Shown one piece after another: positions 4,886-62,987 of a DNA stretch of 64,000 nucleotides (position 1 is its first letter; each line of letters begins with the position of its first letter). The position numbers and the translations under genes are program-made. This DNA comes from Leucoraja erinacea (lineage: Eukaryota): positions 28,024,001 through 28,088,000 of the forward strand of contig NC_073407.1 in NCBI RefSeq assembly GCF_028641065.1. Reading direction: 5' to 3'. The notes under the pieces were generated by a model. That model did not search any database. It saw only the letters and a program-made list of their open reading frames with translations, and was not told the origin of the DNA.

Positions 4886-5157
4886 CCTGCACTGTTCACG
4901 TGATAGGAACAGAATTAGGCCATTCATTAATTTACAAGCCTCTAAATCACGCTGGAGACCCTCCCCAAAATGCTGTGTTCAGTTGTGTACTTTCACCAGC
5001 TTATGGATCCAATTAAAATTATGATTTGTGTTACTGGAAACAAATATCTAGAGAGGATTCAACTTTCTAGGAATGCCATAATACAAATGAACTCTGTAGA
5101 CATGTGAAGAGAGTCTTTGGGCATTTACCAATGTTGTTGTGGTGTTGTCTTGCACAG

Positions 5158-5251
5158 ATCTCTCTACCACCTCAGCCGCTTGGCTGTTCCTCACCTCATC
5201 CACAGCAAGGGCTGCATTGTTAACGTGTCCAGTGTCAATGGTCAGCGCTCG
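5158..5251 (+). CDS. SDR exon
   Basis: [31 protein letters not shown]; cag/gtgagt. Confidence 0.9.
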
Positions 5252-8200: not shown

Positions 8201-8385
8201 GGTTCTGACTACGTCTCTCCCTGCAGTTCCTGAACAAGTGCAAGGTGACACACGCACTGGGCCGGCCGGGGCAGGTGCAGGAGGTCGCCCAGGCCATTGC
8301 CTTCCTGGCCTCCGATGCAGCCTCCTTCATCACCGGCGTCACCCTGCCTGTGGATGGAGGCCGCCACGCCATGTGTCCACGCTGA
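5158..8385 (+). CDS. Classical short-chain dehydrogenase/reductase (3-oxoacyl-ACP reductase FabG-like), 3' part; 5' exons lie outside the window
   Basis: Exons 5158-5251, 5964-6033, 6894-6930, 7779-7842, 8227-8385; all GT-AG and phase-compatible. Peptide has IVNVSS, catalytic YCISK (YxxxK), VRVNAVSPG and C-terminal [19 protein letters not shown]. Confidence 0.93.
5964..6033 (+). CDS. SDR exon (catalytic YxxxK)
   Basis: [23 protein letters not shown]. Confidence 0.92.
6073..6216. repeat. Minisatellite (ACAGCACCCCATAAAC / ACAGCACCC)
   Basis: Tandem units visible. Confidence 0.85.
6894..6930 (+). CDS. SDR exon
   Basis: (D)[11 protein letters not shown](S). Confidence 0.9.
7275..7770. repeat. 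Poly-C low-complexity tract
   Basis: C runs, flanked on both sides by CATCACTCTGTGTGTCAC. Confidence 0.9.
7779..7842 (+). CDS. SDR exon
   Basis: [21 protein letters not shown]. Confidence 0.9.
8227..8385 (+). CDS. SDR last coding exon
   Basis: [52 protein letters not shown]. Confidence 0.93.
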
Positions 8386-16100: not shown

Positions 16101-19100
16101 GTGCTGTAAGTGTGAGTGTGTCCGTGGTGTGAGTGCGAGTGTGGCCGTGGTGTGAGTGTGTCCGTGGTGTGAGTGTAAGTGTGAGTGGCCATGGTGTAAG
16201 TGTGAGTGTGGCTGTGCTGTAAGTGTGAGTGTGGCTGTGCTGTAAGTGTGAGTGTGTCCGTGGTGTGAGTGTGTCCGTGGTGTGAGTGTGTCCATGGTGT
16301 GAGTGGCCATGGTGTGAGTGTGTCCATGGTGTGAGTGTAAGTGTGAGTGGCCATGGTGTAAGTGTGAGTGTGGCTGTGCTGTAAGTGTGAGTGTGGCTGT
16401 GCTGTAAGTGTGAGTGTGTCCGTGGTGTGAGTGTGTCCGTGGTGTGAGTGTGAGTGGCCATGGTGTAGTGTGAGTGTGAGTGTGTCCGTGGTGTGAGTGT
16501 GTCCGTGGTGTGAGTGTGTCCATGGTGTGAGTGTAGGTGTGAGTGGCCATGGTGTAAGTGTGAGTGTGTCCGTGGTGTGAGTGTGTCCGTGGTGTGAGTG
16601 TGTCCGTGGTGTGAGTGTGTCCGTGGTGTGAGTGTGTCCGTGGTGTGAGTGTGAGTGGCCATGGTGTAAGTGTGAGTGTGTCCGTGGTGTGAGTGTGTCC
16701 GTGGTGTGAGTGTGTCCGTGGTGTGAGTGTGGCCATGGTGTGAGTGTGAGTGTGAGTGGCCATGGTGTAAGTGTGAGTGTGAGTGTGGCCATGGTGTGAG
16801 TGTGTGTGAGTGTGAGTGAGTGTGGCCGTGCTGTAAGAGAGTGTCATCTGTGTGGAACCTCTCGATGCCAATGTAGCACTTTAACAGGTTTTAGTGCCTG
16901 CTGCTATGCGTGCTGTGATTGTGCTCCTGGTGTTGGTTTTACAGGGAGAGACCACGCATCAACTCATCTACTCTGGATCTCACTGGCCTGAGGGAGCTGC
17001 CTGAGGGAACGTTTGGCAGAGAATACATCCGCTTCCTTGATGTCAACGTGAGTTTAATCCGTGTTCACCAACCACAATCATCCTGGAGCAGCAGGACTTT
17101 GACATTTTAATCCGAGCAGATTCTTGCCTTGCGCGCAAGGTGTATTTGTTGGCAAGTGTTGGAGTAACTCAGCGGGTCATCTTGAGCAGCAACATTCCTG
17201 TGCCATGGACCCAACAAACCCTGCAATTAGCTGGCAGGAAGCAGAGACCAAAGGGCACTGGGTTTGTTGGTGTGTGGGGCAGAGAGGCAGAGGTGTGTGG
17301 GGCAGAGGGGCAGGCACTAGCCTAGTCCCCCAGCTGTTGCTTAGTGATTACTGAGAGCTGGAGGCACCTGGTCATCGACATGGACAAGGGAGGTTTGTGC
17401 TGAACTTGTCGGCTGCACTAGTTGACTACTTGTGCTTGTACGTGGCTGTACTCGCCGGCTGTACATGTGCATCTTGACCGATACTGGCACTTCCCATTGC
17501 TGGGATCTTTGACAATCGTCCAGGTCTGTGTGCATTGGCCATGTGTTTCTTCATTGAAGTAGTCTCTTGTCTTGATCTGTCAACAAAAATATAGTTGCTC
17601 CAGCTGAAGTTGTCCCACCTCCAGAAATTGTGACCTTCCCCAGAACCTCAGCGTGTGATGGTGGAGAGGCCAGATGCAGGGATCTGTGCAAATGGAACTG
17701 CAGATGCTGCTTTAAACCAAAGAAAGACACAAAAAACTGGAGTAACTCAGCGGGTCAGGCAGTATCTCTGGAGAGAAGAAAGGGGTGATGTTTCAGGTTG
17801 GGACCCTTCCTCAGACTGAAGAAGGATCTCAACCTGAAAAGCCACCCATTCCTTCTCTCCAGAAATGCTGCCTGTCCCGCTGAGTTACTCCAGCATTTTG
17901 TGTCTATCTTAGGTGCAGGGGTCTCCTGGATGGTGGCGTGACCAGGTGTAGGGGTCTCTTGGGTGTTGGAGTGTCCAGGTGTTGGAGTGAACAGGTGTCG
18001 GAGTGACCAGGTGTAGGGAACTCCTGGATAAGCGATAGAGGGGTAGGTAGGGGATCATAAACATTGCTCCACCAACAACCCAAAATCAAAGTCACATGAT
18101 TAAAAACTATGCATTTCCTTTATAAAACAGAGTTCATGCGCAGTTAGAATGTTTTACAATCTAACATGACCCCCTTGTGCTGGATGGGCAAGGACCAGAG
18201 ACACTGCCACGTTGGGCAAGGATATCTGTTGTGCAGAGATGAATGTGGGGGTGAGGCTGCTCCCAGGTTAAGAGGAAATTTATGAATGAATTATTTTAAT
18301 ACTATAAGTAAAAATTGATTCCGTTTTGAGGCCGCAAATGCTGTAAGCAAAGATTTGATATCAGGATCTCGTTCCCGGGGTGAAGCACAGTGTAGAACCA
18401 TGCGGTTCGTGTAATGAGTCCCAGATGCAGGAACTAGGGGAGATTGTTGAAAACATTGATGGAACAATTACAAGCTGCAGCAAAGGGTGTGTCGTGTATC
18501 TGTGTGGCCTGTGTATCTGTGTGGCCTGTGTATCTGTGTGGCCTGTGTATCTGTGTGTATCAGTGTGTATCGGTGTGACCTGTGTATCAGTGTGTATCGG
18601 TGTGACCTGTGTATCAGTATGTATCGGTGTGACCTGTGTATCAGTGTGTATCTGTGTGCATCTGTGGCCTGTGTATCTGTGTGGCCTGTGTATCTGTGTG
18701 TATCAGTGTGTATCGGTGTGACCTGTGTATCAGTATGTATCGGTGTGACCTGTGTATCTGTGTGTATCTGTGTGGCCTGTGTATCTGTGTGGCCTGTGTA
18801 TCTGTGTGGCCTGTGTATCTGTGTGTATCAGTGTGTATCGGTGTGACCTGTGTATCAGTATGTATCGGTGTCACCTGTGTATCAGTGTGTATCTGTGTGC
18901 ATCTGTGGCCTGTGTATCTGTGGTGCCTGTGTAGCTGTGTGGCCTGTGTAGCTGTGTGGCCTGTGTATCTGTGTGGCCTGTGTATCTGTGTGGCCTGTGT
19001 ATCTGTGTGGCCTGTGTAGCTGTGTGGCCTGTGTATCTGTGTGGCCTGTGTATATGTGTGGCCTGTGTATCTGTGTGGCCTGTGTATCTGTGCGGTCTCT

Positions 19101-22100
19101 GTAATTAAATATGAATGACGCCTGCCCAAAGGGTGTGTCACATGAATTATCTGTGACAAATGTCACTTGGACATGTGGTGATTAGAGTTTATGTGCGGCA
19201 TGCAGAGGTGACACGTGCCTGATGAGGGGGCACAGATTGATCGGTCCCTTGTGTCTACAGCGAGTTACTCCTGACAGCCGTATGCCGGTGAGGTTTGTGG
19301 ATGAGGAGGAGCTGGCGTATGTGATCCAGCGGTACCGTGAAGTACACGACTTCATGCACACACTGCTGGGAATGCCCACCAACATTCTTGGTAAGTCCAC
19401 TCACGGGGCAGTGTATGTGTTGGCTTGTGGATGGAATGGGTGACCTTCAGGTGAGCTACCTGTGTATACCTGTCTACCTCTCCTTGTGGGTGACCTTCAG
19501 GAGAGTGTAGGACGGAACTGCAGATGCTGGTTTAAACTGAAGATAGACACAAGATGCTGGAGTAACTCAGCGGGACAGGCAGTATCTCTGAAGAGAAGGA
19601 ATGGGTCACATTTCGGGTTGAGACCCTTCTTCAGACGGAATAAAGGTCTCAACCCAAAATGTCACCCATTTCTTCTCTCCAGAGATGTTGCCTGTTCCGC
19701 TAAGTTACTCCAGCATTTTGTGTCTACCTTCAGGTGAGTTACCTGTGTATACCTCTCCTTGTGGGTCGAGTAGGTGATCTTTAGCTGAATTCATGTTAAT
19801 AAGTGATAGGAGCAGAATTAGGCCATTTGGCCCATCAAGTCTACTCTACCATTCAATCATGGCTGATCTATCTTCCCCCCCATAACCCCTGACACCCGTA
19901 CTAATCAAGAATCTATCTATCTCTGCCTTAAAAATATCCATGGACTTGGCAGTGCATACCTGTCCACCTCTCCTTGTGGGTGGAGTAGGTGACCTACCAA
20001 TTGAATTACCTGTGTCCCTCTCTCCGTGTGGATAGATTAGGTGATGTATTTACCTGCGCATACTTGTCTCCTATCTACCTCTCCTTGCTATTTATTTGGG
20101 AAATACCAGTCTCAGACCTCTGACCCAATGACACATTTCTGCTAAGGACCAGGCTTCTGGGTTGCAATGTAGTTCAGGCAGTTGGGTACCCTCACCTCTC
20201 TACTTCCTACACCAGACGAATGTGGTTAGTTTTTGGGGGGGGGGGGTCATTCAAGGCTTCAGCCAAGGACGAGTAGAACTCCTTTTAAAGTTTGAGTGTA
20301 CCAGATGGATATTGACTCCAACAAACGCACGTGGTCCACCGTGGATTAAGAAACTGTGAAAGAATATTAATAACCTCTCATCGGGCATGGTGAATTTTTG
20401 GGGGTAATTATTGAAACACAACAGGGCCAGGAGGTGTGAGAAAGATTCACAGCAGCATTAGCCTTGCAGTGCACAGGAAGCGAAAGTCAGACAAAACAAA
20501 GATGGAATGAAGTAGAATTGAAACTTGAGGTTAGGCACAGGACAGTAAATGTTCCGATAATCCAGGGAAGAACATGAGCAGCGTCATCTTCCCATGTACG
20601 TCACCAAAGTGAAACTAACAGAATCTACCGCAATGGGAATAGTTGCAGGTGATCTATCGCCAGAGACAGACAAGGTCCGGCCCAACTGATGAGTTGAGCA
20701 GGGACTCCATAGCCTTTCTGAGGTTAGTGGACATGGGCAGTAGCTGTAATAATGGACTGGAGTATTGTGGTGCTCAGCAAGGAGCTGACAACTTCAGCAA
20801 CTGTGTTGCAGCCTGGAGAAGCCCATGTGAACACAACTGGGGAGCTGGCTGCCCTTTCACTGGTTGGGTGGAGGCGATGGATAACTGTGAGAGGATGAGG
20901 TGCAGGGAGTGATGTTGGGGAATGGCTGAGAGAGCTGGCATTGAGTATCAGTCATGTTGCTGCTTTATAGGTCGTCCCATTGCAGGAAGGATGTGGAGGA
21001 TTTGGAGAGGTTTACCAGAATGTTACCGGGAGTAGAGGGGACAAACTTTGAACATGGAATGTACTCCTTGGCAATAAGAGAGCTGAGAACGTGACCCTCT
21101 GGTGGTAATGGGGCAGCAACAAGATAGGGCATGGTAAATCACCTTGGGGCCGACCTATCCCACTTCACAGTGGCCCAGTGCCCAAAACCCTCCAGCTCAG
21201 AGTGTAATCAGTTAGTTTGGGCAATGTAAGAAACATGGCTACATCTGTGGGGTTGGGAGGAGGCTGTGGCCAGGTGTGTTGTGGGAGCACTAACATGTGT
21301 GTTTCTCCACATTGAACAGGTGAGGTTGCTGTCAAGTGGTTTGAGGCGGTCCAGACTGGCCTGCCCATGTGTGTTCTGGGAGCGGTGTTCGGTCCACTCC
21401 GTGTGTCCACCAGGTAAACACTCCTCTCCTGCATCGCCATCCCACTGAGATCTCTAGATAGGAAATTACTTGTGAGAATCTTGCCTTCGTTTCCCTGAAG
21501 ATATTCTGAATAATATGCGCAGATATACGTGGTCATTTATAATACGTGCCATTATTCACTGAAATCCCATCACAAAGGCATGATACCAGTTTTCCTTTAT
21601 GTATATTTCTTGAACATAGCGTGACGTCACCTGTTCCTTCTCTCCAGAGATGCTGCCTGTCCCACTGAGTTAATCCAGCTTTTTGTGTCTATCTTTGGTT
21701 TAAACCAGCATCTGCAGTTCCTTCCTACACATTTCCCTGTGAAACATCACTGGTCACAGTGTCTATCTTGTTTCACAGGGATCAGTGTTGGTGCCTCAGC
21801 TGTTCGTGATTTATATATAAATTACTTGTAGACACAAGGAACTGCTGATTTACAAAAATAAACAAAGTGCTTGAGTAACATGTTCTCCACAGATGCTGCC
21901 TGACCTGCTGAGTTACTCCAGCACTCTGTGAAACGTCACCTATCCATGTTCTCCACAGATGCTGCCTGACCCGCTGAGTTACTCCAGCACTGTCTTTTTA
22001 TAGTGCAAATGTAGGTGGGTTGGTTACTAACTTTACAGACAATGAGGAAGACTATTAAAGGACACAGCAAGTTCTGGATTGTTTGTAAAGATGGGCAGAG

Positions 22101-22843
22101 AAACTGCAGATGGAGTTTAATCCAAGCAATTGTGATGTTTGTTCACCATCTCTCATCCCCAGTCCTGAGGTTCCCCATTGCAAGGGGAAATGTATAGTTT
22201 GGGGGCAGGATCTTTAACAGCACGGATGTACAGAGGGATCTTGGGGTCCAAGTCCATAGCTTCCTTAAAGTAGAAACACAAGTAAATAGATTGGTAAAGG
22301 TAATGTATGGTATGTTTGCGGTGATCAGTCAGGGCATTGAGTATTGGAGTTGGGAAATCATGTTGTGTGCAATTCTGTTTGTCTCATTACAGGAAGATGT
22401 GGAGGCTTTGGAGACTGCAGAAGATATTTACCACAATGCTGCCAGTATTAGAGGGATAGAGGAGGCTGGACAAACTTGGATTGTTTTGTCTGGAGTATTG
22501 AAGGCGAAGGGGAGAACATAGAAGTTTATGTAACAATGAGAGGCAGAGATAGGGTAGACAGTCGAATCTTTTCCCATTTCGCATTGCTATGACAGCAAGG
22601 TTTGAGTACAGGATTCGAGGTAAATGTCTTGCCTGTTCGTGACGCATTCTTGTGTGTCCCTGTGGCAGGAATATCCGTGTTTTAACAAGAGACCTGATCC
22701 CATGGGCTGTGCAGTGCGGTCGAGCTGCTCACTGTGTGCTAAACATCTACTACGAGAACCGATGGGACCAGAGCTTAGAGTCACTGCGGGAGGAGATTGG
22801 AATCATCCCCTGCCCCCCTCTTCAATGCCCGACTAAGGCATAA
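10106..22843 (+). CDS. COQ4: Ubiquinone biosynthesis protein COQ4, mitochondrial (~271 aa)
   Basis: Exons 10106-10154, 13979-14146, 15932-16028, 16945-17047, 19261-19390, 21320-21413, 22669-22843 (816 nt, in frame). Hallmark [28 protein letters not shown] (HDxxH..E), [26 protein letters not shown]. Confidence 0.96.
10175..13520. repeat. GC-rich minisatellite, core GCACAGGTACACGG plus variable C runs (COQ4 intron 1)
   Basis: About 3.3 kb, roughly 100 or more units; no stop codons, giving the spurious 1100-1300 aa ORFs. Confidence 0.97.
13650..13745. repeat. (CACT)n microsatellite
   Basis: Direct observation. Confidence 0.9.
13979..14146 (+). CDS. COQ4: COQ4 exon 2
   Basis: [31 protein letters not shown]. 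Confidence 0.9.
14387..15708. repeat. 18-bp minisatellite GGTACTGGGGTATATGTG (COQ4 intron 2)
   Basis: Direct observation. Confidence 0.97.
15932..16028 (+). CDS. COQ4: COQ4 exon 3
   Basis: (D)[31 protein letters not shown](Q). Confidence 0.95.
16029..16836. repeat. GT-rich minisatellite (GTAAGTGTGAGT / GTGTGAGTGTGTCCGTG) starting at the COQ4 exon 3 donor
   Basis: Direct observation. Confidence 0.95.
16945..17047 (+). CDS. COQ4: COQ4 exon 4
   Basis: [34 protein letters not shown]. Confidence 0.95.
17690..17910. mobile_element. Palindromic Penelope-type terminal repeat pair
   Basis: Inverted ~90-bp arms GACACAAAA..CTGGAGTAACTCAGCGGG..GGCAG..CTCTGGAGAGAAG and its reverse complement; family recurs many times in the window. 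Confidence 0.7.
18490..19095. repeat. Minisatellite CCTGTGTATCTGTGTGG
   Basis: Direct observation. Confidence 0.95.
19261..19390 (+). CDS. COQ4: COQ4 exon 5
   Basis: [43 protein letters not shown]. Confidence 0.96.
19505..19731. mobile_element. Palindromic Penelope-type terminal repeat pair
   Basis: Same inverted architecture as 17690-17910. Confidence 0.7.
21320..21413 (+). CDS. COQ4: COQ4 exon 6
   Basis: [31 protein letters not shown]. Confidence 0.95.
21775..22625 (+). mobile_element. Old CR1 LINE fragment with nested repeats
   Basis: Degenerate [15 protein letters not shown]...[16 protein letters not shown]. Confidence 0.65.
22669..22843 (+). CDS. COQ4: COQ4 exon 7 (last)
   Basis: [37 protein letters not shown]...*. 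Confidence 0.93.
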
Positions 22844-26600: not shown

Positions 26601-29600
26601 TCGTCACTATCTACGATACCACCCACTTTAGTGTCATCTACAAACTTACTCATCATGTATTCTACATTCTCATCCAATTCATTGGAATATAGTCTGACGA
26701 AGGGTTTTGGCCCGAAACTTTGCCTATTTCCTTCGCTCCATAGATGCTGCTGCACCCGCTGAGTTTCTCCAGCACTTTTGTCTACCTTCATTGAAATATA
26801 CCACAACTAGCCCGTTCCCATCCACCTCAACCGTCAGACCGCTCACATTAAAATAAATGCAGCCGTGCTCCTGCCTATTCATCACCTTCCAATCCGACGT
26901 CCAGCCTCTCACCTGCCTGTCCTGCATTGTACTCCTCCCCCCCTCCCATACCAATCTAGTTGAGGAGGTGGCTTCTGCAGAGGAGAGTGCGATGATGCTA
27001 GGGTAGGGAAGGCCACCAGCTGGGCATGCAGCTCCCTCTATTCTTACCTTGGTCAGATGACAGTCCTGCAGGTAAGACAATTGCTTGTTGCCGCTGCCAA
27101 CTGCGAGCACTGTGGAGAGACAATGGGGCCGTGAGAGACTCTACCTACATGACATTCCACACAGCATATGCCAAAGCCCCCCTGAGGTACACTAGAGCTA
27201 CCGAGCTGATTGTGGGGACAGCACTCGCACCCCCACCTTGCGCAAGATGCAACTTCCACAGCACCTACAGGTTGCCGTCCATCTGCCCTTCCTCACGCTG
27301 CTTCCAAAACACTCAGACCTGATGTGTGGTATCTCAGCACCACTTTTGCAGCCAGCCTCCTCACCCGTTGCCCTGCCAGGTACCAAACTCTCTGTGTCTT
27401 TCATCAGCCCCTTAGAGTGCAATATCCAAAACCAAGAGCTGGAAATGCAGGGAACACTCAGCAAGTTCAGTGACCTCTGTACAGAAAAATGAAGAATTCA
27501 GATCCAGCACAGGTCATTAGATGCATCCTCCACACACAGACTTGCCCGGTGTCGAGTGCACACTGGGTATTCACTGACTGCTGGTTTTGATACTCGATTA
27601 AAGTTAGTTTGTTCTAATCTGAAACACAACTCCCTTCAATATTTTGCATTTTTATTTATTTCTGATTCCAGCATCTGCAGTTTTTAAAATTTCTAATTTT
27701 ATTTGTTATCTGTTGAGATTTTTAAAGCATTTGATAGGATGGAAAGTCCTGAACAAGCAGGCCAATTTGAAGAATTCACAGATTGGTTGGGGACCAGCTC
27801 CATCCAAGACCGCAGGAAATGGCAGAGAATTGTGGACGCAGCCCAGAACATCACACAAACCAACTTCCCTTCCATTCTCCATCTATACCTCACGCTGCCT
27901 CGGCAAGGCCAGCAGCATAATCAAGGACAAATCACACCCTGGCCACTCCCTCTTCGCCTCTCTCCCATCAGGCAAAAGGTGTAGAAGTGTGAAAACACAC
28001 ACCTCCAGATACTGGGCCAGTTTCTTCAGTTACTATCTGGCAACTGAACCAAGCTACCACAACTAGAGAACAGTCCTGAGCTCCTCACCACCTTATTGGG
28101 GACCCTCAGACTATCTTTGATTGGACTTTACTCGTTTTACCTGCACTAAACTTTATCATGTATCTGAACATGGTGAATGGCTCGATTGTAATCATGTATT
28201 GTCTTTCTACTGACTGGTTAGCACACAAACAAAATCTTTTCACTGTACCTCAGTAGAAGTGACAATAAACTAAAATAAATAACTGCCTGGAGCAGGGTCA
28301 CTCCAAACCACTGCTGTGGCCCCAAGCACATTGCCAACGCCGGAAAAACCTTCAACATCCACCAGTATGACTAAACATACTAACATTTAAATGAATATAT
28401 AAAATACAAACATTTGAGCAGATTTTAATCAGCTGAAGGGCTAGTGATGAGAGAAGCTGCAAGATTTTGCAATCTTCCTATCCAACACGACTGAACTCTA
28501 ACAGCAACTGGTCATGGCAGGACTGAAGAGATGTTTAAGGAACTGCAGATGCTGGAAAAATCAAAAGTAGACAAAAAATGCTGGAGAAACTCAGCGGGTG
28601 AGGCAGCATCTACAGAGAGAAGGAATAGGCGACGTTTCGGGTCGAGACCCTTCTTCAGACTGAAGAGTTTAGTAAGTTTATTGTCATGTACAGTGAAAAG
28701 CTTTTGTTGCATGCTAACCAGTCATCAGAAGGACTATACAAGATTTCAATCAGGCCTTCCACGGTGTACAGATACAGGATAAAGATAAAGTCCAGCAAAG
28801 TCCGATCAAGGATACGCCGAGGGTCACCAATCAGGTCAATAGTAGTTCAGGACTGCTCTCTAGTATGTAGTAGAATGTTTCAGCTGCATGACCTAACCCT
28901 AACCCAGTTAGGAAGAAACTGTCCCTGAATCTGGAGGTGTGTGATTTCACACGTCTGCAACTCTTGCTGATGGGGTCCAGGTACCTTGTGCTTATGAGTG
29001 GCACTGACAGCAATCATCCCACTGTATCTTGGGGCCTGTGATAATAAAGACACTGTTGAAAATAGAGAGTGGGTCCACGTGAGGATCTTCCTGGAGATCC
29101 AGCAGCTGCTGAACAAACTCCAATGGCCACTGCTGGCTGGGGCATTGGGGCAGCTTATCCTGGGCTGGAGAGCCTGTTAGCCTGTGAACAGGATCCAACC
29201 AGACACTCGGGTGCTGGGGCTGTGATCCACACCAGTCAGACCAGCCGAGACCAACATTTCCAGCGTTAAATTGCCATTTTGCTCTTTTACAAAATCTTAA
29301 AACTTATAATTTCATCATAAACACACATGCGCTGTGATTGAATAATCGGATAAACAACAAAACGCTGAGGACACAGATTCAATGCCAGACTCACCGAACA
29401 CACCAGATGATCTCCAGTCCAGGCGATGACCAGCTCCTATCCTCAAACCAACAAACTTTGGGCCTCTCACTGCAACACACAACACGGTTCATACAGTGTG
29501 GAAACAGGTAACACATCAACATATAAAACACTAAGCAGACTCCCAAACCCAGCATTAAACACTCCAATACAGCAGACTCCCAAACCCAGCAATAAACAAT

Positions 29601-32162
29601 AAACTCCAAGGCAGACAAAAATGCTGGAGAAACTCAGCGGGTGAGGCAGCATCTATGGAGCGAAGGAAATAGGCAACATTTCGGGCCAGCATCTGTAGTT
29701 CCTTCTTAAACATTAAACACTCCAATACCGCAGACACCCAAACCTGGAATTAAACACAATACATCAGACTCCCAAAGCCAGCATTGACCAATACTGCAGT
29801 GTGTGTCCCTCTACCCAGCACTTAACTCCAACACTACAGCATATCAGTTCTCATGGACAACATTGGTTCCCCCCCCCTCCCTCTCCAGAGGCCCTCCCTT
29901 GCCCCTTACCCCGTGGGTGGTTGGCCAGGGCAGGCAGCTGTGCGACAGTCAGGTTGGTTTCTGTGCCACTTATACCCTGGCTGGTGGTCGGCAGAAAGCG
30001 GATCTGATCGTGTGGAAGTGGACATTCCGACGCGTTGAGGTCTGGCGATGGAATGAAAGGATGAGACTTGTCACTAGTTCCCACCTGGATCACGCATGAG
30101 CACGGAAGACTCATCATAGTGTGATCACCCCCAGCTAATGGAGTTACCACTTGCAGCAAACTGTGGGCTCGATCTACAGGTTCCCCCTGCATCAACATTC
30201 CTCAGCGCCGTTTACTTGACCAAGGTTGACCAAGGGAAGCAGGGCAAACAATGCAGTTACCACATACAATGTAAATATTTTATGTCTAGTGGCATAATGA
30301 TCCCACAAGGGTTGGTGTGAGAGGAGGCTCCGTGTCACAGATCAGTATCCAGCGATCAGCATCGGATGCTTGGGCCCAGTAGGGACAGGATGGGGGGGGT
30401 GGGGTTATGGCGGGGGGGGGCTAGTGAAGGGGAGCGGAAGAGGGGGGGGGGCGTTGGTTTGGAGGGGGGGGGCGTTGGTTTGGAGGGGGGCTGATGGTGA
30501 GCTGGGTGATGGTTGGGGTTATATTGAGGGGGGGGGGGGGGGGGGTTATAGTGAGGGGGGGGGGGGGTTATAGGGTGATTTCACTAAAGGTCACTGGAGC
30601 GTAGATCCGCACCCACGTGACCAAAATTCTCAAGTGGAGGACACTCGAGGGTTCGGTACATGTTAGTGGATGGGAAAAAACGCATTTTCCCACCCGTTAA
30701 AAACATAGAAAACGGCGAGGTTGTGAGCTGCAATTTACTGTGCCAGTCGGGGTGACCGTGAGGCACAGCTACCTAGATTTACAGGGGGAAAAAAAGATAG
30801 CAAGTAAGGTAAATTCAAGAGGGAACTGAAGGTACCAAACCGACGGAAATGAACAGCCGACATTTGCCGTGGATATTTAAAGGTCCAAAATATCGGGAAT
30901 TATCGCGTTTGCTCGCTGAATTTCATCAAAAGTAAGGCATTATTAACTTACCTTTGATAAATTCAGCGAGCAAACGCGATAATTCCCGATATTTTGGCGG
31001 GGGTTGTGGTTGGGGGTCACCAACCGAGGCACGGGAGCCGGGGGTCAGGGGGCGTGTGTCCGGGGTCAGGGCCGGAGACTCACCGCGGACCAGGCCGGTC
31101 TCCACCGTGAGCCGGGGGTCAGCGGTCAGGGCTGGGGGTCAGGGGTCGGGGACCCACCATGCACCAGGCCGGTCTCCACCGTGTGCGGGGGGGTCAGGGG
31201 TGGGGGTCAGGGACCCACCATGCACCAGGCCGGTCTCCACCGTGTGCCGGGGGGTCAGGGGGTGGGGGTCAGGGGTCGGGGACCCACCATGCACCAGGCC
31301 GGTCTCCACCGCGTGCCGGGGGTCAGGGGCCGGGGGTCAGGGGCCGGAGACCCACCGTGCACCAGGCCGGTCTCCACCGTGTGCCGGGGGGTCAGGGGTC
31401 AGGGGTCAGGGCCGGGGGGGGTCAGGGGTCGGGGACCCACCGTGCACCAGGCCGGTCTCCACCGTGTGCCGGGGGGTCAGGGGTCGGGGGTCAGGGACCC
31501 ACCGTGCACCAGGCCGGTCTCCACCGTGTGCCGGGGGTCAGGGGTCAGGGGGTCGGGGCCGGGGGGGTCAGGGGTCGGGGACCCACCGTGCACCAGGCCG
31601 GTCTCCACCGCGTGCCGGGGGTCAGGGGTCGGGGTCGGGGGGCGTGTGCCGGGGCCGGGGGTCAGGGGGCGTGGGTCCGGGGCCGGGGGTCCAGGGTGCA
31701 CACCGCGTGCCGGGGGTCAGGGGTCAGGGCGGGGTCAGGGCCGGGGGGGTCAGGGGTCGGGGACCCACCGTGCGTGCCGGTCCACCGGGTCCGGGGGGGG
31801 CAGGGGCCGGGGGGTCAGGGGTCGGGGACCCACCGTGCACCAGGCCGGTCTCCACCGCGTGCCGGGGGTCAGGGGACCAGGGACCCACCATGCCGGTCTC
31901 CACCGCGTGCCGGGGGTCAGGGGGCCGGGGGTCAGGGGGTCAGGGGTCGGGGCCGGGGGTCAGGGGTCGGGGACCCACCATGCACCAGGCCGGTCTCCAC
32001 CGCGTGCCGGGGGGTCAGGGGTCAGGGGTCGGGGCCGGGGGGGTCAGGGGTCGGGGACCCACCGTGCACCAGGCCGGTCTCCACCGCGTGCCGGACGCTT
32101 CGCCAGTTGACGGCGGGCGGTTTGTAAACGGCGAAGATGCCGCGGAGGGAGCGCGCCGCCAT
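23310..32162 (-). CDS. TRUB2: Mitochondrial pseudouridine synthase TRUB2 (~318 aa)
   Basis: Exons 32162-32063, 30041-29910, 29469-29395, 27109-27048, 26065-25984, 24896-24824, 24592-24456, 23605-23310 (957 nt, in frame). Motifs GIFAVYKPP, GHRLD (catalytic Asp), GRLIEKTTYDH, IHEIGLELKSSAVCTSVRRTRDG. Confidence 0.96.
23893..24385. repeat. 33-bp minisatellite GCAGTACAGGTGATCAGACACTAGTGTGTCAGT
   Basis: Direct observation. Confidence 0.93.
24456..24592 (-). CDS. TRUB2: TRUB2 exon 7
   Basis: YSGIDLKSQAAYELACRGMLRPLHKSPPIITGIRCSQFSLPNFTL. Confidence 0.94.
24824..24896 (-). CDS. TRUB2: TRUB2 exon 6
   Basis: (D)HITLDRLERIIAVIQGSHQKALI. Confidence 0.94.
24955..25450. repeat. Tandem repeat with core CACAGCCTGCAGTGTTACAGT, interrupted by an 83-bp retro-insertion
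   Basis: Direct observation. Confidence 0.88.
25984..26065 (-). CDS. TRUB2: TRUB2 exon 5
   Basis: EYTVHGSFGTATEDFSDTGRLIEKTTY. Confidence 0.94.
26305..26680 (-). mobile_element. CR1 RT fragment
   Basis: SKFVDDTKVGGIVDS...KCKVLHFG. Confidence 0.85.
27048..27109 (-). CDS. TRUB2: TRUB2 exon 4
   Basis: (V)LAVGSGNKQLSYLQDCHLTK. Confidence 0.92.
27775..28280 (+). mobile_element. Rex1/Babar-like LINE 3' fragment
   Basis: SIYTSRCLGKASSIIKDKSHPGHSLFASLPSGKRCRSVKTHTSR; tail GACAATAAACTAAA. Confidence 0.8.
28662..28955 (-). mobile_element. Rex1/Babar-like LINE 3' fragment
   Basis: RRVKSHTSRFRDSFF; tail GACAATAAACTTACTAAACT. Confidence 0.7.
29395..29469 (-). CDS. TRUB2: TRUB2 exon 3
   Basis: (V)RGPKFVGLRIGAGHRLDWRSSGVF. 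Confidence 0.93.
29910..30041 (-). CDS. TRUB2: TRUB2 exon 2
   Basis: (D)LNASECPLPHDQIRFLP...LPALANHPR. Confidence 0.9.
30571..30997. mobile_element. Probable non-autonomous DNA-transposon fragment ending in a fold-back
   Basis: Sharply bounded AT-richer, CpG-retaining block between G-rich tracts; 39-bp perfect inverted repeat at its end. Confidence 0.45.
31035..32062. repeat. Minisatellite made of TRUB2 exon-1 3' end plus donor copies separated by GGGGTCA spacers
   Basis: About 12 copies of GACCCACCRTGCACCAGGCCGGTCTCCACCGYGTGCCGG. Confidence 0.95.
32063..32162 (-). CDS. TRUB2: TRUB2 exon 1
   Basis: MAARSLRGIFAVYKPPAVNWRSVRHAVETGLVH; donor G/GTGGGT. Confidence 0.92.
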
Positions 32163-32245: not shown

Positions 32246-32574
32246 TGGCCCGTCACTCAGCGGGACGGGCAGCATCTGTCACCCGTTCCTTCCCACAGAT
32301 GATTCAGATTCAACTTTAATTGTCATTGTCAGTGTACAGTACAGAGACAACGAAATGCATTTAGCATCTCCCTTGAAGAGCGATGAAGATGCCGCCTGAC
32401 CCGCTGAGTTTCTCCAGCACTTTGTGACTTAGGCAGATGTTCTGTTTAACAAAATCGAAGGTAGACAAAAATGCTGGAGGAACTCAGCGGGCGAGGCAGC
32501 ATCTATAAGCGAAGGAAATGTGGGCCGTTTCGGGTCGAAACCTTCTTTCTTCAGACGCTCTGCTCGGTTTCCCT

Positions 32575-34320: not shown

Positions 34321-37300
34321 CTGTCATCACACACACACACACCAGTCAGCACAAACTCCCCAGACAGGGGACGGGGGGGGGGGGGGGGGGGGGGGGACAG
34401 TGAGAGGTGGGGGAGAGATGTTTCAGTTAGACAGACAACCACTGGTAAAGCCATGGCTCGTGAGTTCCGCGGGCGCAAGGAACAAATGACCTAAAGTTTG
34501 CGTTGAGTGAACACTGGCGTTTTGTGAGAGTGTTTGGATCCCGGGATCCAGAGAGGGGTCAACGGCCGACAGGTGAACGGCCCGCAGTAACTAGTGCCTC
34601 TGTCGCCGCTGGAAGAACTGACACCTCTACTCCCCGGGTCGGGCGCTGCCTCCTCGATCCCGCTGCTCGGCGGCGGCAGACTAGGATTCCAGAGCATCAC
34701 CGATGCCTCACCTCAGCCCCTCGTCCCCCGCCTCCTGTCCGGATAACGTGACCGACGTTGGCTGAGCTGAAGTTGGGATCCACCCACTCACAAAACCCGG
34801 TGTACGGCGAGGACTCAGTTCACTCAACGCAAACTTGAGGTAATTTGTTCCTCCCCGCTCCCATCCATCCCAACCACAGCGCAAAAGTCTAATGTGTAGG
34901 AGGTGTGAAGGAGGCTTCTATCCAGAGGTCCGCGGACGGGAATGTCGGCCCCAGCTCGACTCTGCCTGTCCTGTCGAGTAACTCCAGCGTTTTGTGCCGA
35001 CCTTCGCTGGTCCTGAGTTGGGCTGGAGAGGGAATGGGATGAAACACCACGTACCCCCGACAGCCTGGTCCGTGTTCACGCCGAAACAGTTGACGCCAGG
35101 CCGGTAATCCACGTCGTCAATGGCGATGTACCCCGTCTCCCTAGCATTCGATTTTATCACCAGAAACCCAACCTGAGTGGGACACAGCCGTCAACATCAC
35201 ACAGCCTCCCCCCATCCACCCACGCACCTCCCCTCCCCCCATCCACCTCCCCCCACCCACCCCCCCACCTCCCCTCCCCCCACGCACCTCCCCTCCCCCC
35301 CACCCACCCACCCCCCTCCCCCCCCCCCCCCCCCACCTCCCCCTCCCCCCCCCCCCCCCACCCACGCACCTCCCCTCCCCCCACCCACCTCCTCCACCTC
35401 CCCCCCATCCACTTCCCCCCCACCTCCCCACTCCCCACGCACCTCCCCTCCACCCAACCCCCTCCCCACCTCCTCTACCCCCACCCCCCCTCCTCTCCCC
35501 CCCCCCCACCCCTCACTCCCCACCCACCCCCTATCCTCCCCCTCTCCTCAGGGTCACGCCCCCCCGGAGGTGGGGTGGGGGTGAAAGGACGTGACCAGTG
35601 CTGACCTGGAAGGACTCTGCGCTCGCCACAGTTAGGTTCACTCCCCGCCACTGGTCGTTCGCTCCATGTTTGGCCTCCCACAGGGTCGTTTCCTGGTCGG
35701 CGACCAACTGGAAAAACTTCAGTGGCCCTTGCGCTGCAGGCAAAGCACACGGGACTGTCGACGCGGGTCACACACGGGACCGTCCACGCGGGTCACACAC
35801 GGGACCGTCCACGCGAGACCGTTCACGCGGGTCACACACGGGACCGTCCACGCGGGTCACACACGGGACCGTCCACGCGGGACCGTTCACGCGGGTCACA
35901 CACGGGACTGTCCACGCGGGTCACACACGGGACTGTCCACGCGGGTCACACACGGGACTGTCCACGCGGGTCACACATACCGCACTATCCACGCATGGTG
36001 TGGGAGGGGTCGGGGTCGGGTTAGGGGTCAGAATGGGGGGTCGGTCATTAATTGGCCTGGAGCCGGATTCAGCCCAACAGGGGCCGGTCAGGGCCGGAGA
36101 GAAGAAACTGGTCACTTGTGGTGTGACCAATCTGCTGATGGGTCAAAGGAGTGTTGGGCAGGATGACCAGTGGGAGTCCGAGCTGGGATTACGGTGCAAA
36201 CTATTTGTCCAAATCCAACCAGTCCTCATCACGAGGCAGGTGAGCACATGGGAATAAATGGGAACGGTCCAAGAGCAAAACCTGCGACTCATTCACTGAG
36301 GTCAGGATTGTGTGCTGGCGGCTCGACCCCGGACAGCGCTGACCACAACCAGACTGGGCAGCGTGGCGGCCCCAAAACCACAGCCGGACCAACTACGGCC
36401 GGACCAACTTGGAGGGAGGGGGTGAGGGTGGAGGGTGAGGGTGGAGGGTGTGAGGGCGGAGGAGGGAGGGGGGTGGGGGTCTCACCGAGCTGCTGGGGTA
36501 TCTTGGTGCGATAGTAGAAGGTGAGGCAGGAGCCCTTGGTGGGCGGCAGGTGTTCACTGAGGAGACGAGCGGTGTCTTCGACGCTGACCGTCGCCATGTC
36601 CACAAACACAGAGTGACCTGTAGAGAGAGGAGGTCCTTCATTCACATAGAACCCCCGTGCCCTTTGACCCCGCGCCATCCGACTGACACCACGACAGCGG
36701 TCAGAGGTTGTTCAGTCAGGCCGAGGGAACGGTGTCCGCCGGACTGGTCACTGTGTACCTCCGGCCACTGGCCACACGAAGGAGCTGGGATCCGGTGCCC
36801 CGCCTGACCCCCAGAGAGGTGGGAACAGGGGGGGGGAGATGGGGAGAGAGATACTCTCCCACTGCCCCTCCCGACCCGATCAGACTGACCCCTGACCTGG
36901 TCACAGTGGGCCAGCCCCACCTGCTTATTGCCAGTTTTTCTGCTGAGTCGGCCCGAGTTTGGCCACTGACCAGTGCGTGAGGCAGGGTGCCCACCCACCT
37001 TCAGGGGTGCCCAGGGTGTGGTCAGTGGCCGGAGTCTTGTAGTGACCGGGCACCGAGCTGCTGCTCCAGTTCCAGTCCACGGTGTCCATCTCGTTCAGAA
37101 CGTTCCTCCAGCCACACAGTCCGGCCTCAAAGTCACAGGTACCTGGAGAGAGAGGGGGAGGGTCACTGACCAGTGTCTCCCCACCCATCCCCCATCCATT
37201 CATCCCCCCACCCACTCACCTGGCACCTTCCCCCCACCCATCCTCCACCCACACCTGTGTCAGGGGGTCGGAGGGTGTGGGGGTCAGTGGTTGGGGTCAC

Positions 37301-38278
37301 TCACCCGGACGCGGACACCGCGAGGGTTCCAATACGAGGTCGTCGATCGCGATGTACGAGGAGGAAGCTCCGCCTCCGGCCGCTTCAAACACCAGCTGCA
37401 GGGACAGAGTATTGGTCAGCACTGGTGACTGGCAGTGACCCAGTGCCCCGCCCCCCCAGTGACCCCCGCCCCCAGTGACCCAGTGACCCCCGCCCCCAGT
37501 GACCCAGTGACCCCCGCCCCCCAGTGACCCAGTGACCCCCGCCCCCAGTGACCCCCGCCCCCAGTGACCCAGTGACCCCCGCCCCAGTGACCCCCGCCCC
37601 CAGTGACCCCCGCCCCCAGTGACCCCCCCCCCAGCCCCCCCCAGTGACCCAGTGACCCCCGCCCCAGTGACCCCCGCCCCCAGTGACCCCCGCCCCCAGT
37701 GACCCCCGCCCCCAGTGACCCAGTGACCCCCGCCCCAGTGACCCCCGCCCCCAGTGACCCCCGCCCCCAGTGACCCCCGCCCCCAGTGACCCAGTGACCC
37801 CCGCCCCAGTGACCCCCGCGCCCCCAGTGACCCCCGCCCCCAGTGACCCCCGCCCCCCAGTGACCCCCGCCCCCAGTGACCCAGTGACCCCCGCCCCCAG
37901 TGACCCCCGCCCCCAGTGACCCCCAGTCGGTGGAGGTGCCGGTCAGTTACCCTCCAGACATGTGCACCCCACTCTGGCCAGATCATGATGCATGGGGGTC
38001 GTGTGAAGGGGAGGGGGAGGGGCGGTGTGGCGCTACCGGTCAGTTACCCTCCAGTCGTGTGTCGTGTGCACCCCCACTCTGGCCAGGGTCCACGTCTGGA
38101 GCGGGCCAGTGTCCAGGGTCCAGACCAGACGCTTCGTCTGCAAGTCTTCCTCCATGTAGACGTCCAGCGAACCTGTTGGAGCAAGAACCGGAACATTCCG
38201 TATATGGGGAGGGGTCTGTACACAGGGGGTGGGGTCTGTACACAGGGGGAGGGGTCTGTACACAGGGGGAGGGGTCTG

Positions 38279-38314
<36 letters not shown>

Positions 38315-41300
38315 GGAGCTTCAACCTGATCTAACCTTATCTGTGACGGGTCAGATAAGGGGGAGGTTTAGTTTCTCAAACCTGTACTCACGGTGGGGGG
38401 GGCAGAATGACCAGGGGGTTACCTGGGGACAGGTGGGTGGGGGTCAGGCCGTTACCTGGGCTGTCGGCACAGGTGTGGGCACGGACATGCAGCAGGTGGT
38501 GGGGGTGGGGGGAATAGGGAGGGTGAGGGGGGGGACAAGGGCAGTGGGGGGTTCAGGGAAACACAGAGAAACAGTTGCAGGAGCAGGCCACTCGGCCCTT
38601 CGAGCCAGCACCACCATTCAATATGATCATGGCTGGTCATCTAAAATCAATACCACGTTCCAGCTTTCTCCCCATACCCCTTGATTCCTTTAGCCCAAAT
38701 AACTAAATCTAACTCCCTCTTGAAACCATCCAGTGAATTGGCCTCCACTGCCGTCTGTGGCAGAGAATTCCACAGATTCACAACTGTCTGGGTGAAAACG
38801 TTTTTCCTCATCTCGGTCCCAAATGGCCTCCCCTTTATTCCTAAACTGTGACCCCTGGTTCTCGACTCCCCCAACATGGGGAACATGTTTCCTGCATCTA
38901 CCCTGTCGAATCCTTTAAGAATTTTACATGTTTCTATAAGATCACATCTCATCAATCAATCAATCAATCAGTTTTATTCGTCAACCTTCAAAATTGCCTT
39001 ATCTCAAATCCTCTCACAATGAAGGTCAACATGCCATTAGCTTTCTTCACTGCTTACCGTACCTGCTTGCTTACTTTCATTGACTGGTGTACAAGCACAC
39101 CCAGGTCTCATTGCACCTCCCTTTTCCTAATCTGACACCATTCAGACAATAATCTGCCTTCCTAACGTCACATTTATCCACATTATACTGCATCACCCAA
39201 CCTATCCCAGTCACTCTGCAGCCTCATAGCGTCCTCATCACAGCTCACACTGCTTTGTGTCATCCGTACACTTGGAGATGTTACATTTAATTCCCTTGTT
39301 AATACAGTGCCCTCCATAATGTTTGGGACAAAGACCCATCATTTATTTGTTTGCCTCTGTACTCCACAAGTTGAGATTTGTAATAGAAAAAAATCACATG
39401 TGGTTAAAGTGCAGATTGTCAGATTTTTAATACATTTTGCTTGTCGGCGCTGGTGTGGGAGGGGCTGGGAAGGGGGGGCAGGGGGAGGGGGGTTCAGGTT
39501 GGGGGAGGGGAGGGGGGTTACCTGGGCTGTCGGCACTGGTGTGGGAGCAGCTGGGATGGGGGGGCAGGGGGAGGGGGGTTCAGGTTGGGGGAGGGGAGGG
39601 GGGTTACCTGGGCTGTCGGCGCTGGTGTGTACACGGAACTGTAGGCAGGCGATGTCCAGGGGGGGTGTTGGGTTTCTGACACCAGCTGCAGCCGCTGACT
39701 GGTGGGGAGTGGCCGGTGGCTGGTGTCGGCCAACATGTAGTGTCCTGCAGCAAATACCATCGGTCAGTCGTCTGCCCAGTGGGAACCCTGACCTCCGGGG
39801 CAATGGACCCGGCCCTGCCCCCCCCCCCCCCCCCCTAGCCCCCTCCCCCAAACCCCCCATGGCCCACCAAGGGCATGGAGTGGGGGAGCAGCAGGGAGCC
39901 ACCCTCTCCCTCTACACTGCCCCAGTGAGGTGCTGCCCCCTCCACACGGACATGGTACCGCCTGAGGCCGGCATGCACAGAGGTTCCCGACGAGGCTACA
40001 GCCCCCTCCCCCTCCTACCCCACCACCCCCCTCCCCTCCCACCCCACCACCCCCTCCCCTCCCACCCCACCACCCCCTCCCCTCTCCTACCCCACCACCC
40101 CCTGCGCTGGAGTAACTCAAGCAGCATCTCTGGAGAACATGGACAGGTGACATTTCAGGTCCTGAAGCAGTTACTCCAGCACTTTGTGCCATTTTTTGTA
40201 AACCAACATCTGCAGTTTCTTGTTTGTATATATTGTGTGCAGTGTCCACAGACCAGTGTGTACAGTGTCCCAGTGTTTGAGGCCAGTGTGTGCAGCGTCG
40301 CAGTGTGTGAGGCCAGTGTGTACAGTGTCCCAGTGTGTGAGGCCAGTGTGTGCAGCGTCGCAGTGTGTGGGGCCAGTGTGTACAGTGTCCCAGTGTGTGA
40401 TGCCAGTGTGTGCAGCGTCGCAGTGTGTGAGGCCAGTGTGTGCACTGTCCCAGTGTGCACAGTGTCCCAGTGTGTGTGGCCAGTGTGTGCACTGACCCAG
40501 TGTGTACAGTGTCCCAGTGTGTGCAGCGTCCCAGTGTGTGAGGCCAGTGTGTGCAGCGTCCCAGTGTGTGCAGCGTCCCAGTGTGTGAGGCCAGTGTGTG
40601 CAGCGTCCCAGTGTGTGAGGCCAGTGTGCGCAGTGTCCCAGTGTGCGAGGCCAGTGTGTGCACTGTCCCAGTGTGCGCAGTGTCCCAGTGTGCGCAGTGT
40701 CCCAGTGTGCGCAGTGTCCCAGTGTGTACAGTGGCCCAGTGTGGACAGTGGCCCAGTGTGTGCAGTGGCCCAGTGTGTGCAGTGTCCCAGTGTGTGAGGC
40801 CAGTGTGTACAGTGTCCCAGTGTGAGAGGCCAGTGTATGCAGTGTGCCAGTGTGTGCAGTGTCCCAGTGTGTACAGTGTCCCAGTGTGTGCAGTGTCACA
40901 GTGTGTGAGGCCAGTGTGTGCACTGTCCCAGTGTGTACAGTGTCCCAGTGTGTGCAGTGTCACAGTGTGTGAGGCCAGTGTGTACAGTGTCCCAGTGTGT
41001 ACAGTGTCCCAGTGCGTACAGTGTCCCAGTGTGTGAGGCCAGTGTGTACAGTGTCCCAGTGTGTGCACTGTCCCAGTGTGAGAGGCCAGTGTGCTCTGTT
41101 TGTGAGGGTGGTGCAGCGGTGAGGATGGGAAGGTTATGCTGACCTTGCTCTGTCCCCAGGGTGCTGTCGATGGGCGGCCGGTTCTTGGTTCTTGTCCCTG
41201 AGTCCCCGCTCTCCCGCTGCCAGGTCCGGGCTCCCGTCGATGTGAAGGAACAAGAGTCGGCTTCAAAGCTGCAGAACTGCTGTGGTTCACAACTCCCTCC

Positions 41301-60490: not shown

Positions 60491-62987
60491 ATTTGACGCC
60501 AACTCTCCCCATTGAATGGCAGCGTAGACTTGATGGGCCGAATGGCCTTATTCTGCTCCTAGACCAACAGCCACCTCCTTATACAACGTGGCCGGTGAAG
60601 TATTTAGATTGTATCCATGCATTAAGTGACGGCTAATCACAAGTCTGTGGGAGAGCAAGGGTTTGTCTTGTTTATCTGCAGGATGGTGAACAAACTCTTT
60701 AACTTGTTTACTAAAGAACTGCAGATTCAGGCTTAAACCGAAGATAGATACAACATTTGGGTCGAGACCCCGAAATGTCACCCACTCCTTCTCTTCAGAG
60801 ATGCTGCCTGTCCCGCTGAGTTACTCCAGCACTTGGTGTCTAAACTCTTTAACGTGTTTATTATCATCTTAGGTGGATGAAGGTATTTAAGTTATTTAAT
60901 AGTTATAAATCTATGGAGTGTTGGTAATTTATTTAACTCCATTGCTTATGTTCCATCAAGTCTCTCTGCATCTCCCCACTGGAACCTGTGTGTGCAGACT
61001 ATACACCGGTCTACTCCATGGGCAAGAAAGAACGAGCATAGAGATGGAGAGAGTGATGTGAATGTGTGCAGAGAAAGAGCGATAGATTGAGACAAAGATG
61101 AAGAGAGGAGAGTGAGAGAGAACGAGATATTTAGACTCTCAGACCTGCCTGCTGTTGGATGAGATCGTGCCTGATCCATGTATCTGTGTTTTTCTCATGT
61201 CATTCAACCATTCGGCCCATCAAGAGTTCCCCAGACTAATGGTAGTCCCCCACTGGGCCTGCCCAATACTCTCCCACTTACCCGTGACTGAGGGTTCTGC
61301 CTCTGGGGCAGTGAATTCAACACCATCCACCCACATTCCCTCATCTCCCGCGAATCCACCCATCAACTGTTGTACACAGGGCAGCACCTGTCAGAGGTCC
61401 CGGCTTATCGCAGCAGTGCCTGGGCACGCCAGCCACAAAATGTCACCCTTCTTCAGTCTGAAGGGTCTCAACCCGAAATGTCACCCATTCCTTCTCCCCA
61501 AAGATGCTGTCTGTCCCGCTGAGTTACTCCAGCATTTTGTGTCTATGATCGATGTAAACTAGCATCTGCAGTTCCTTCCTCACACAATAACCTCACCCCA
61601 CTCAGCTGCCAGTCTGCATAGTTTGGCACATTGCCAGCTATTTGATGATGTTTTAAGGGTCTATCGAGATGGACCAAGTCTCCCTGGAGTCGCACTCTTC
61701 CTTCATTCAACCCATACTCTAAGGATGACCTCTCATTTGTCTGGGCAGAAATCCAGTTTCTGAAGTGGTTCCTTTCAGTATCACTTAGTTTCCATTATAT
61801 AATGACCACAATTGCTACACTGAGCTTTTATCAGCTGTTGGTTAGAAGATGTGTCTATTGCTGCCCCAGGAAAGACAAGGGAGAAATAACCAGGGAAATA
61901 TATGGAGAGATAATGGAGAAAGAGAGAGGGAGAAGAGAGTCAGAAAGAAAGAGATACATAGGAGAGAAGGGCACAGAGGGTAGAGAGATAGATGGATACA
62001 CACAAAAATGGAGAGCAAACTCAGAGAGCGAGGTAGATTGAAGGAGAGAGAGAGAGGCAGCAATAGATTGAAGGAGAGAGAGGAGATGGTGAAATCTGGA
62101 ACTGGTAACACAGTGGGCAAATATACAGACAGGAAGAGCCAGTGAGTAAAAGACCAACAAGCATGGAGGCAGAGATATGGAAACAAGATGAGACCAAGAG
62201 AGATTGCCAGAGACCGAGAAATACAGATGGAGAGTGTGAGAGGGAGAGGAGGTGAGGTGGGGGAGAAAGTGTGTGAGAATGTGAGAACGTGTGTGGGAGA
62301 GTATGTGTGAATGAGTGTATGCGTGTGTGTGAGTGAGTGTATGTGTGTGTGTGAGTGAATGAGTGTGTGTGTGAGTGTGTGAGTGTGATTGTGCCAACCT
62401 TTGTGGACCGGCATCTGAGTGCGGGGAGGTTATTTTGTGAGGAAGGATCGGCAGATGCGAGTTTACATTGATCATAGACATAAAAAGCTGGAGTAACTCA
62501 GCGGGACGGGCAGCATATCTGGAGAGAAGGAATGGGTGACATTTCGAGTCGAGACCCTTCTTCAGACTGAAAGTCGTGGGAAAGGGAAACGAGAGATGAT
62601 GTAGAGAACAAATGAATTAAAGATATGTAACAAAGTAACAATGATAAAGGAAATAGACTGATGTTAGCTGTGGCTAGGAGTGAACGAGAAGCTCGTGTGT
62701 GACTATGGTGGGGGAGGGATGGAGAGGAATGCACGGATTATTCGAAGTTAGGGATATCAACATTCATACTGTTATTCATACGAATAGTGAGTTCTCCAAC
62801 CAAATAATGCCTGCGCTCCCCTCCACATCCTAAGTCCTCCCACCTCCCCTCCCCCACCCTCAGTCCTCCCCACCCCCACCCCACCCCTGTCGGTGCAGGG
62901 TTTCCCACTGTGCACACTTACAGGTGCACACACGCGCGTGCACACTCCACACAGGCAGGCTGACAGATCCAACAATCAGAAGTGTCG

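Follow-up and report, generated by a model that had tools for sequence, protein, structure and literature searches.

A complete minimal hammerhead core at the edge of a dispersed, likely Penelope-derived repeat in intron 3 of skate TRUB2

The window, by which we mean the whole 64-kb stretch of skate DNA that was analyzed, carries the TRUB2 gene on its minus strand. In the interval from 32162 to 23310, eight minus-strand exons with AG/GT boundaries form a single frame of 318 codons, whose product matches, at 318/318 residues, a skate protein labeled TRUB2 by NCBI. By Pfam, Coq4 exons lie tail-to-tail with TRUB2, and the other neighbors are a short-chain dehydrogenase, a MAM-domain protein, and an Ocnus-family protein (Table 1). 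The window also contains a dispersed repeat, for which a 161-nt query gives 21 local BLAST matches, itself included, at E<=0.01. One member of this family, referred to here as the 28658 copy after the position of its C3 nucleotide, lies in TRUB2 intron 3 in the same orientation as the gene. A first-pass annotation, made from the sequence without database searches, had placed it in sense within a TRUB2 intron, and the exon model together with the protein identity confirms this. Because it is located in the TRUB2 pre-mRNA, the 28658 copy would be transcribed with it. In two RNA runs, depth is 1 to 7 per direction on TRUB2 exon bins and 0 to 2 on unique intron bins, and no stable RNA from the 28658 locus was seen in these runs; the exon 3-exon 4 joint is absent among the 15 joints listed, and the library looks unstranded. 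In contrast to the exon bins, RNA depth over the repeat is ~15,000.

Table 1. Positions of the features discussed in the text (window coordinates)
Feature	Position	Strand	Remarks
Minimal hammerhead core	28631..28658	minus	CUGAAGA, extra A, helix II, GAAA, palindromic ACGU (15.1-16.1), C17
Helix I, 5' strand (G, U)	28659..28660	minus	pairs only with 28630-28629
Helix I, 3' strand (G, C)	28629..28630	minus	A·C mismatch at next position
Entire copy of the repeat, ~130 nt; likely pLTR fragment truncated at its 5' end	28531..28663	minus	ends approximate; loose ends at 28537 and 28660-28663
Optional 3' extension (tail), ~30-35 nt	28531..28565	minus	in the 28658 copy and 4 other core-bearing copies
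10-nt exact direct repeat, upstream copy	28658..28667	.	candidate target-site duplication, with microhomology; shares bases with helix I and C3
10-nt exact direct repeat, downstream copy	28521..28530	.	flanks the 28658 copy
Family member, head-to-head inverted pair	17686..17913		center 17815; tail confined to minus arm; flanked by 11-nt direct repeat with 1 mismatch
Family member, head-to-head inverted pair	19507..19730		center 19635; tail confined to minus arm; flanked by 14-nt direct repeat with 1 mismatch
Longest family member	62435..62860	minus	core at 62565, ~210 nt upstream, decayed inverted junction near 62775
TRUB2 intron 3 (host)	27110..29394	minus	between exon 3 (29469-29395) and exon 4 (27109-27048)
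Family sense fragment, TRUB2 intron 2	29601..29685	minus	without CUGA box and 5' arm of helix II
Family copy, TRUB2 intron 4	26691..26788	plus	antisense to gene
Neighboring-gene spans	13888-22840, 5108-8382; 36292-44835, 59423-59611	first two plus; last two minus	Pfam

The catalytic core of a minimal hammerhead is complete in the 28658 copy. On the minus strand, a CUGAAGA box (28658-28652) is followed by an extra A (28651), helix II (GGGU-CUCG-ACCC, 28650-28639), GAAA (28638-28635), C-G-U (28634-28632), and C17 (28631), and the predicted cut falls between 28631 and 28630. The first-pass annotation had described a minimal type I core (CUGANGA box, stem II, GAAA, and GUC) with stem III reduced to the palindrome ACGU; all core nucleotides from 28658 to 28631 are indeed intact, and so is the palindrome. 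Its stem II exists as a hairpin, but not with the proposed 5 bp and 2-nt loop, an arrangement that is sterically impossible (folding energy, 100000). Instead, folding gives a 4-bp helix II with a CUCG tetraloop, at -4.8 kcal/mol. Helix I, on which the first-pass annotation is silent, consists of 2 pairs only (U2.1·G1.1 and G2.2-C1.2), followed by an A·C mismatch. A longer helix I formed through splicing at an upstream CAG was considered and dropped, since a usual exon end in AG would restore the same A·C mismatch.

We re-implemented the RNAmotif descriptor for minimal hammerheads (min-HHR) given in Fig. S7 of PMC4209133, which states a helix I minimum of 3 bp and allows G·U. With helix I of at least 3 bp there are 0 matches in the 64-kb window, and with helix I of at least 2 bp there are 5, each of exactly 2 bp, with C3 at 5379+, 26694+, 62565-, 28658-, and 17814-. 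The 28658 motif fails the strict descriptor because its helix I is under 3 bp. The features of PMC4209133 min-HHR that it does contain are the CUGANGA box with its optional extra nucleotide, a helix II within 3 to 7 bp with a loop within 3 to 10 nt and G10.1-C11.1, and GAAANNUH with a palindromic 15.2/16.2 pair, which is C-G in this copy. The min-HHR consensus of PMC4209133 has an extra nucleotide after A9, G10.1-C11.1, and a palindromic 15.2-16.2, and these hallmarks, which lie outside the search pattern, are all present. The core with a helix I of at least 2 bp was found in 0/150 block-wise dinucleotide shuffles and the core with helix II alone in 5/150. Since the five matches are copies of one family, they amount to roughly one event, and one event compared with 0/150 shuffles is still beyond chance. 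The Rfam hammerhead covariance models gave no match at E<=1 over the whole window or at E<=10 over 221 nt, which is unsurprising because the motif has no helix III; Rfam miRNA and snoRNA matches in the window score far under their gathering scores.

For covariation, 9 core-covering copies were chosen from the 21 family matches; their column identity is ~84%. No double-sided change occurs at any of the 8 pairs among these close copies, and the changes seen are all one-sided and leave helices I and II paired. Pairing across the 9 copies is 87.5%, compared with 89.6% in shuffles, and is not above the shuffles. The C-G palindrome has been lost in 8 of the 9, mostly through a CpG-type change and with no double-sided compensation, a pattern that appears to match neutral decay, as expected. 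The 28658 copy is the sole aligned copy in which the palindrome is intact, which justifies its earlier designation as the best copy. In the dominant variant derived from reads, U·G replaces U-A in helix II and the loop is UUCG.

The closest counterparts of this motif are the min-HHR in the pLTRs of metazoan Penelope-like elements (PLEs) reported by Cervera and de la Pena in 2014 (PMC4209133), which have the same CUGANGA box with extra nucleotide, G10.1-C11.1, and GAAA-NN-UH with its palindromic 15.2/16.2, likewise have no helix III loop, and are mostly solo dispersed motifs. The Acropora Neptune row in Fig. S3 of that paper shares the layout of the 4-bp helix II as well as CGUC. In contrast, the skate helix I has 2 bp (U·G or U-A, plus G-C), under the 3 bp of the published descriptor. 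Six rows in the same figure, from five species (Culex, three Drosophila, and Oikopleura), also have 2 bp, but all of these consist of two G-C pairs, so the skate pairs are weaker. Judged by sequence, the skate motif lies outside the strict descriptor set and fits the short-helix-I variants of Fig. 2C and S3 in PMC4209133.

Reads and contigs at 80% likeness peak in depth over 28498-28669, and summed contig depth on the repeat is ~16 million, compared with ~30 on unique flanks, a value that should not be read as a copy number. DNA contigs of two other samples, from differently labeled organisms, also contain the 3' end of the 28658 copy, which indicates that this insertion is an old passenger.

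Characteristic PLE anatomy includes an inverted, 5'-truncated copy placed head-to-head and an optional 30- to 40-nt tail that is often one-armed (PMC8557442, PMC3846280), and the skate family has both inverted head-to-head copies and a one-armed tail. The two pairs centered on 17815 and 19635, both of which lie within the Coq4 span, are complementary at 84/100 and 86/100 nt around a single central base, and in both pairs this base is hammerhead position 2.1. At the inverted junction near 62775, the long arm was equaled in 0/1000 shuffles, a value inflated by low-complexity sequence, and its 38-nt non-purine part in 12/2000. Ten core-bearing copies were scored for the tail: 5 have it in register, 4 are without it, and 1 has an out-of-register match that was not counted. 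All three insertions examined (3/3) are flanked by direct repeats, which are 11, 14, and 12 nt long and contain no more than 1 mismatch; repeats as good were found in 21, 0, and 5 of 1000 random stretches, respectively. At the 28658 copy, the exact portion of the flanking repeat is 10 nt (0/20000). However, the upstream copy of this repeat, 28658..28667, also belongs to a 7-bp fold-back centered on 28659 (7/7 bases), and the flanking repeat here may be an inverted remnant instead. No empty insertion site was seen in the reads and contigs.

The first-pass annotation had proposed looking for full-length members linked to a GIY-YIG/RT open reading frame (ORF), and none came to light by any of three routes. 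Pfam detected no RT or GIY-YIG domain among the 300 longest of the 486 filtered stop-free frames in the window. The 44-amino-acid translation of the 19634 copy, compared with longer proteins, had no match at E<=1, which is a weak test. Exact-pattern scans for the family gave 0 and 0 matches in viral contigs, 0 and 1 in metagenomes, and 0 in GTDB; the single metagenome match is due to chance, with no family sequence around it. Neither the family motif nor any of three chondrichthyan genus names has a match in the supplement of PMC8557442. Because the RT/GIY-YIG ORF link was not found, the PLE origin is inferred from anatomy. On that basis, the repeat family is likely pLTR-derived and Penelope-like, as the first-pass annotation had suggested: the inverted pairs, the one-armed tail, and the flanking repeats support this part of its reading, and the link to an ORF is the part that was not recovered.

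One alternative is that the ~130-nt unit is a non-autonomous SINE- or retrozyme-like element copied by PLE proteins, with the hammerhead edge setting its 5' end. This would explain why read alignments stop 2 to 3 nt upstream of C3 and have heterogeneous flanks (1896 at 28660 and 2486 at 28661, with an agreement of 0.32 to 0.35, in read set X23), and the pattern is similar in X18 contigs and read set X24. Contigs (9 and 19) and reads (4 and 4) also contain head-to-tail joints, which lead from 28661 back to 28574, and animal retrozymes are derived from pLTRs according to a recent preprint (10.64898/2026.07.22.740005). However, 3630 reads at 28663 run on into a common pyrimidine-rich upstream sequence, and the 62565 copy reaches ~210 nt upstream, which fits truncations of a longer element. 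The tandem joints are rare compared with a depth of ~15,000, the 28658 copy is solo, and the heterogeneous loose ends could equally represent several subfamilies. We regard this alternative as unlikely. Non-LTR animal retrozymes resemble the skate repeat in being short, non-coding, pLTR-related units with a type I hammerhead (10.64898/2026.07.22.740005, PMC7229834), but a retrozyme is a tandem array of two or more units in which every unit has a hammerhead, while the 28658 copy is a monomer and tandem joints are found rarely, elsewhere in the family. The skate motif is not a retrozyme array.

The activity implied by the first-pass annotation is not supported for the 28658 copy, which has a 2-bp helix I with a wobble, no partner core in the pre-mRNA, and competing folds that dominate. 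With 4-nt flanks, a structure in which helices I and II form and the core stays unpaired has a calculated probability of 0.045; in three longer contexts its probability is 5e-8, 5e-7, and 5e-9. In the predicted structures, the CUGA box is sequestered by the upstream 7-bp fold-back or by a downstream pyrimidine arm. The double hammerhead is calculated at -6.7 kcal/mol, compared with 2 x -4.8 kcal/mol for two free helix II hairpins, and the cofold minimum, at -19.7 to -78.7 kcal/mol, is far below it. Nearest-neighbor energies ignore tertiary contacts, Mg2+, and proteins, and these were obtained without a positive control through the same calculation, so that they indicate instability rather than absence of activity. 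There is no second sense core in the TRUB2 pre-mRNA: the intron 2 fragment cannot supply one because it has neither a CUGA box nor the 5' strand of helix II, and the copy in intron 4 runs antisense to the gene. Read ends showed no pile-up at the cut site, a weak test because it detects only pile-ups of at least a fifth of depth and because the oligo-dT library looks unstranded.

A published min-HHR with a longer helix I showed no monomer cleavage and only low dimer cleavage (PMC4209133), dimer cleavage was reported by Lunse et al. (as cited in PMC6765202), and 1 of 9 Xenopus dimers was cleaved (10.64898/2026.07.22.740005). We predict that the 28658 copy is catalytically inert at its site. Its inertness is a prediction only, because the PLE hammerhead described in PMC11167929 is silent alone and yet cleaves with the PLE protein.

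This observation also bears on the possibility that the 28658 copy is conditionally active, that is, that with family RNA supplied in trans or with a PLE or host protein it cuts the TRUB2 pre-mRNA after GUC and affects its processing. It is the only copy in which core and palindrome are both intact, it is in sense in an intron, family RNA is very abundant, and the 3' end of the insertion is found in the DNA contigs of the two other samples. However, the trans complex would have 4 + 2 + 2 pairs and is predicted to be less stable than the free hairpins, its CUGA box would be sequestered by the folds described above, and the read ends give no sign of cutting within the sensitivity of that library. 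One intact palindrome in 9 copies at ~84% column identity requires no selection, and the insertion in two other samples speaks of age, not function. Conditional cutting of the TRUB2 transcript is, in our judgment, very improbable. A chance look-alike in a non-PLE repeat, such as a LINE 3' end or a SINE, is hardly credible: the failure at helix I, the missing Rfam match and PLE ORF, and the lack of covariation would agree with it, but it is opposed by the 0/150 shuffles (although copies of one family are not independent), by hallmarks that are all present without having been imposed, by one-sided changes that keep helices I and II paired, by the dominance in reads of the variant in which U-A has become U·G under a UUCG loop, and by inverted pairs with a one-armed tail, which are PLE traits.

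Based on the completeness of the core, the anatomy of the family, and the folding predictions, we conclude with good confidence that an intact minimal hammerhead core lies at the 5' edge of a ~130-nt solo copy within intron 3 of TRUB2, which is likely a 5'-truncated PLE pLTR with tail and is predicted to be inert. The parent element would have two pLTR hammerheads on the same transcript, which would dimerize through ACGU and cleave after GUC; this cleavage would process multimeric transcripts and would probably need the element's protein, as reported for PAc of the anole. Reverse transcription would begin within the tail and end a few bases beyond the CUGA box, with fold-back at nucleotide 2.1, often or sometimes, giving head-to-head pairs and otherwise solo ~130-nt copies. 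On this view, the 28658 copy would be one of these short products, and it would be transcribed passively as part of the pre-mRNA and lost when the intron is spliced out.

PAc (Poseidon of Anolis carolinensis; Frangieh et al. 2024, PMC11167929) is similar to the skate family in several respects. There too, a tail is defined by two alternative 3' ends and the hammerhead lies upstream of both, no RNA-seq read ends at the cut site, and the ends of genomic copies fall away from the cut site. The difference is that PAc is a full element whose protein-assisted cleavage has been measured, while the skate copy is a solo fragment without an ORF and is known from sequence alone.

The 5' ends and inversion centers of family copies coincide with the 5' edge of the 2-bp helix I (position 2.1). 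That short helix is family-wide, and the match is what specialists may find of value. A bolder proposal, which we offer tentatively and consider doubtful, is that a PLE-derived short element, massively amplified in skates, kept the core while its helix I shrank to two weak pairs throughout the family, that the 5' edge of the hammerhead serves as the stop and fold-back signal for reverse transcription, and that cleavage takes place only on the PLE protein. If this is true, the ribozyme fold sets the boundary of the element, which would be a structural rather than a catalytic role. The very many copies per genome could be used to test how inverted PLE ends form and whether the hammerhead needs PLE protein.

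The skate family adds to the hammerhead-bearing Penelope-like repeats, a kind known since 2014, and its helix I teaches that this helix needs checking before such a motif is called a ribozyme. Table S1 and Fig. S3 of PMC4209133 name no cartilaginous fish. Literature searches gave no description of this skate family, although the supplements of the 2026 preprint or file 1 of PMC4209133 may list it.

Several minor observations concern the family and its surroundings. Another abundant repeat (28670-29010, minus strand; repetitive by depth), which we take to be the tail of a Rex/Babar-like LINE, has the 28658 copy at its extreme 3' end, and the fragment hosting the 26694 copy is presumably CR1-like. 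At the start of the longest member, about ten codons precede a stop (62740-62738), and the short peptide may resemble a PLE C terminus. Family fragments at 32384-32556 lie tail-to-tail as a long hairpin just upstream of the TRUB2 start codon. At 21891-21989 (plus strand) there are two head-to-tail units of ~60 nt from a related subfamily, in which the GAAAC-GUC half is kept and the CUGA box is absent.

Two acceptor-like sequences flank family cores. In the longest copy, a pyrimidine tract ending in CAG (62590-62565, minus strand) directly precedes helix I; in Penelope of D. virilis, the intron end is the 5' edge of helix I (PMC4209133). At the 28658 copy, a pyrimidine tract ending in TAG and followed by ATG (28632-28607, minus strand) lies just downstream of the cut site. 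It resembles the real acceptors of TRUB2 and could be the element's intron end or a cryptic acceptor; no splice joint at this tract is among the joints listed.

Intron 1 of TRUB2 has repeats of its own. A tandem repeat at the start of the intron (31060-32100, minus strand) contains many copies of the end of exon 1 together with its donor site, which form a run of spare donor sites. A near-perfect inverted repeat of ~90 nt at 30895-30987, which has only a weak score as a miRNA look-alike, is presumably MITE-like.
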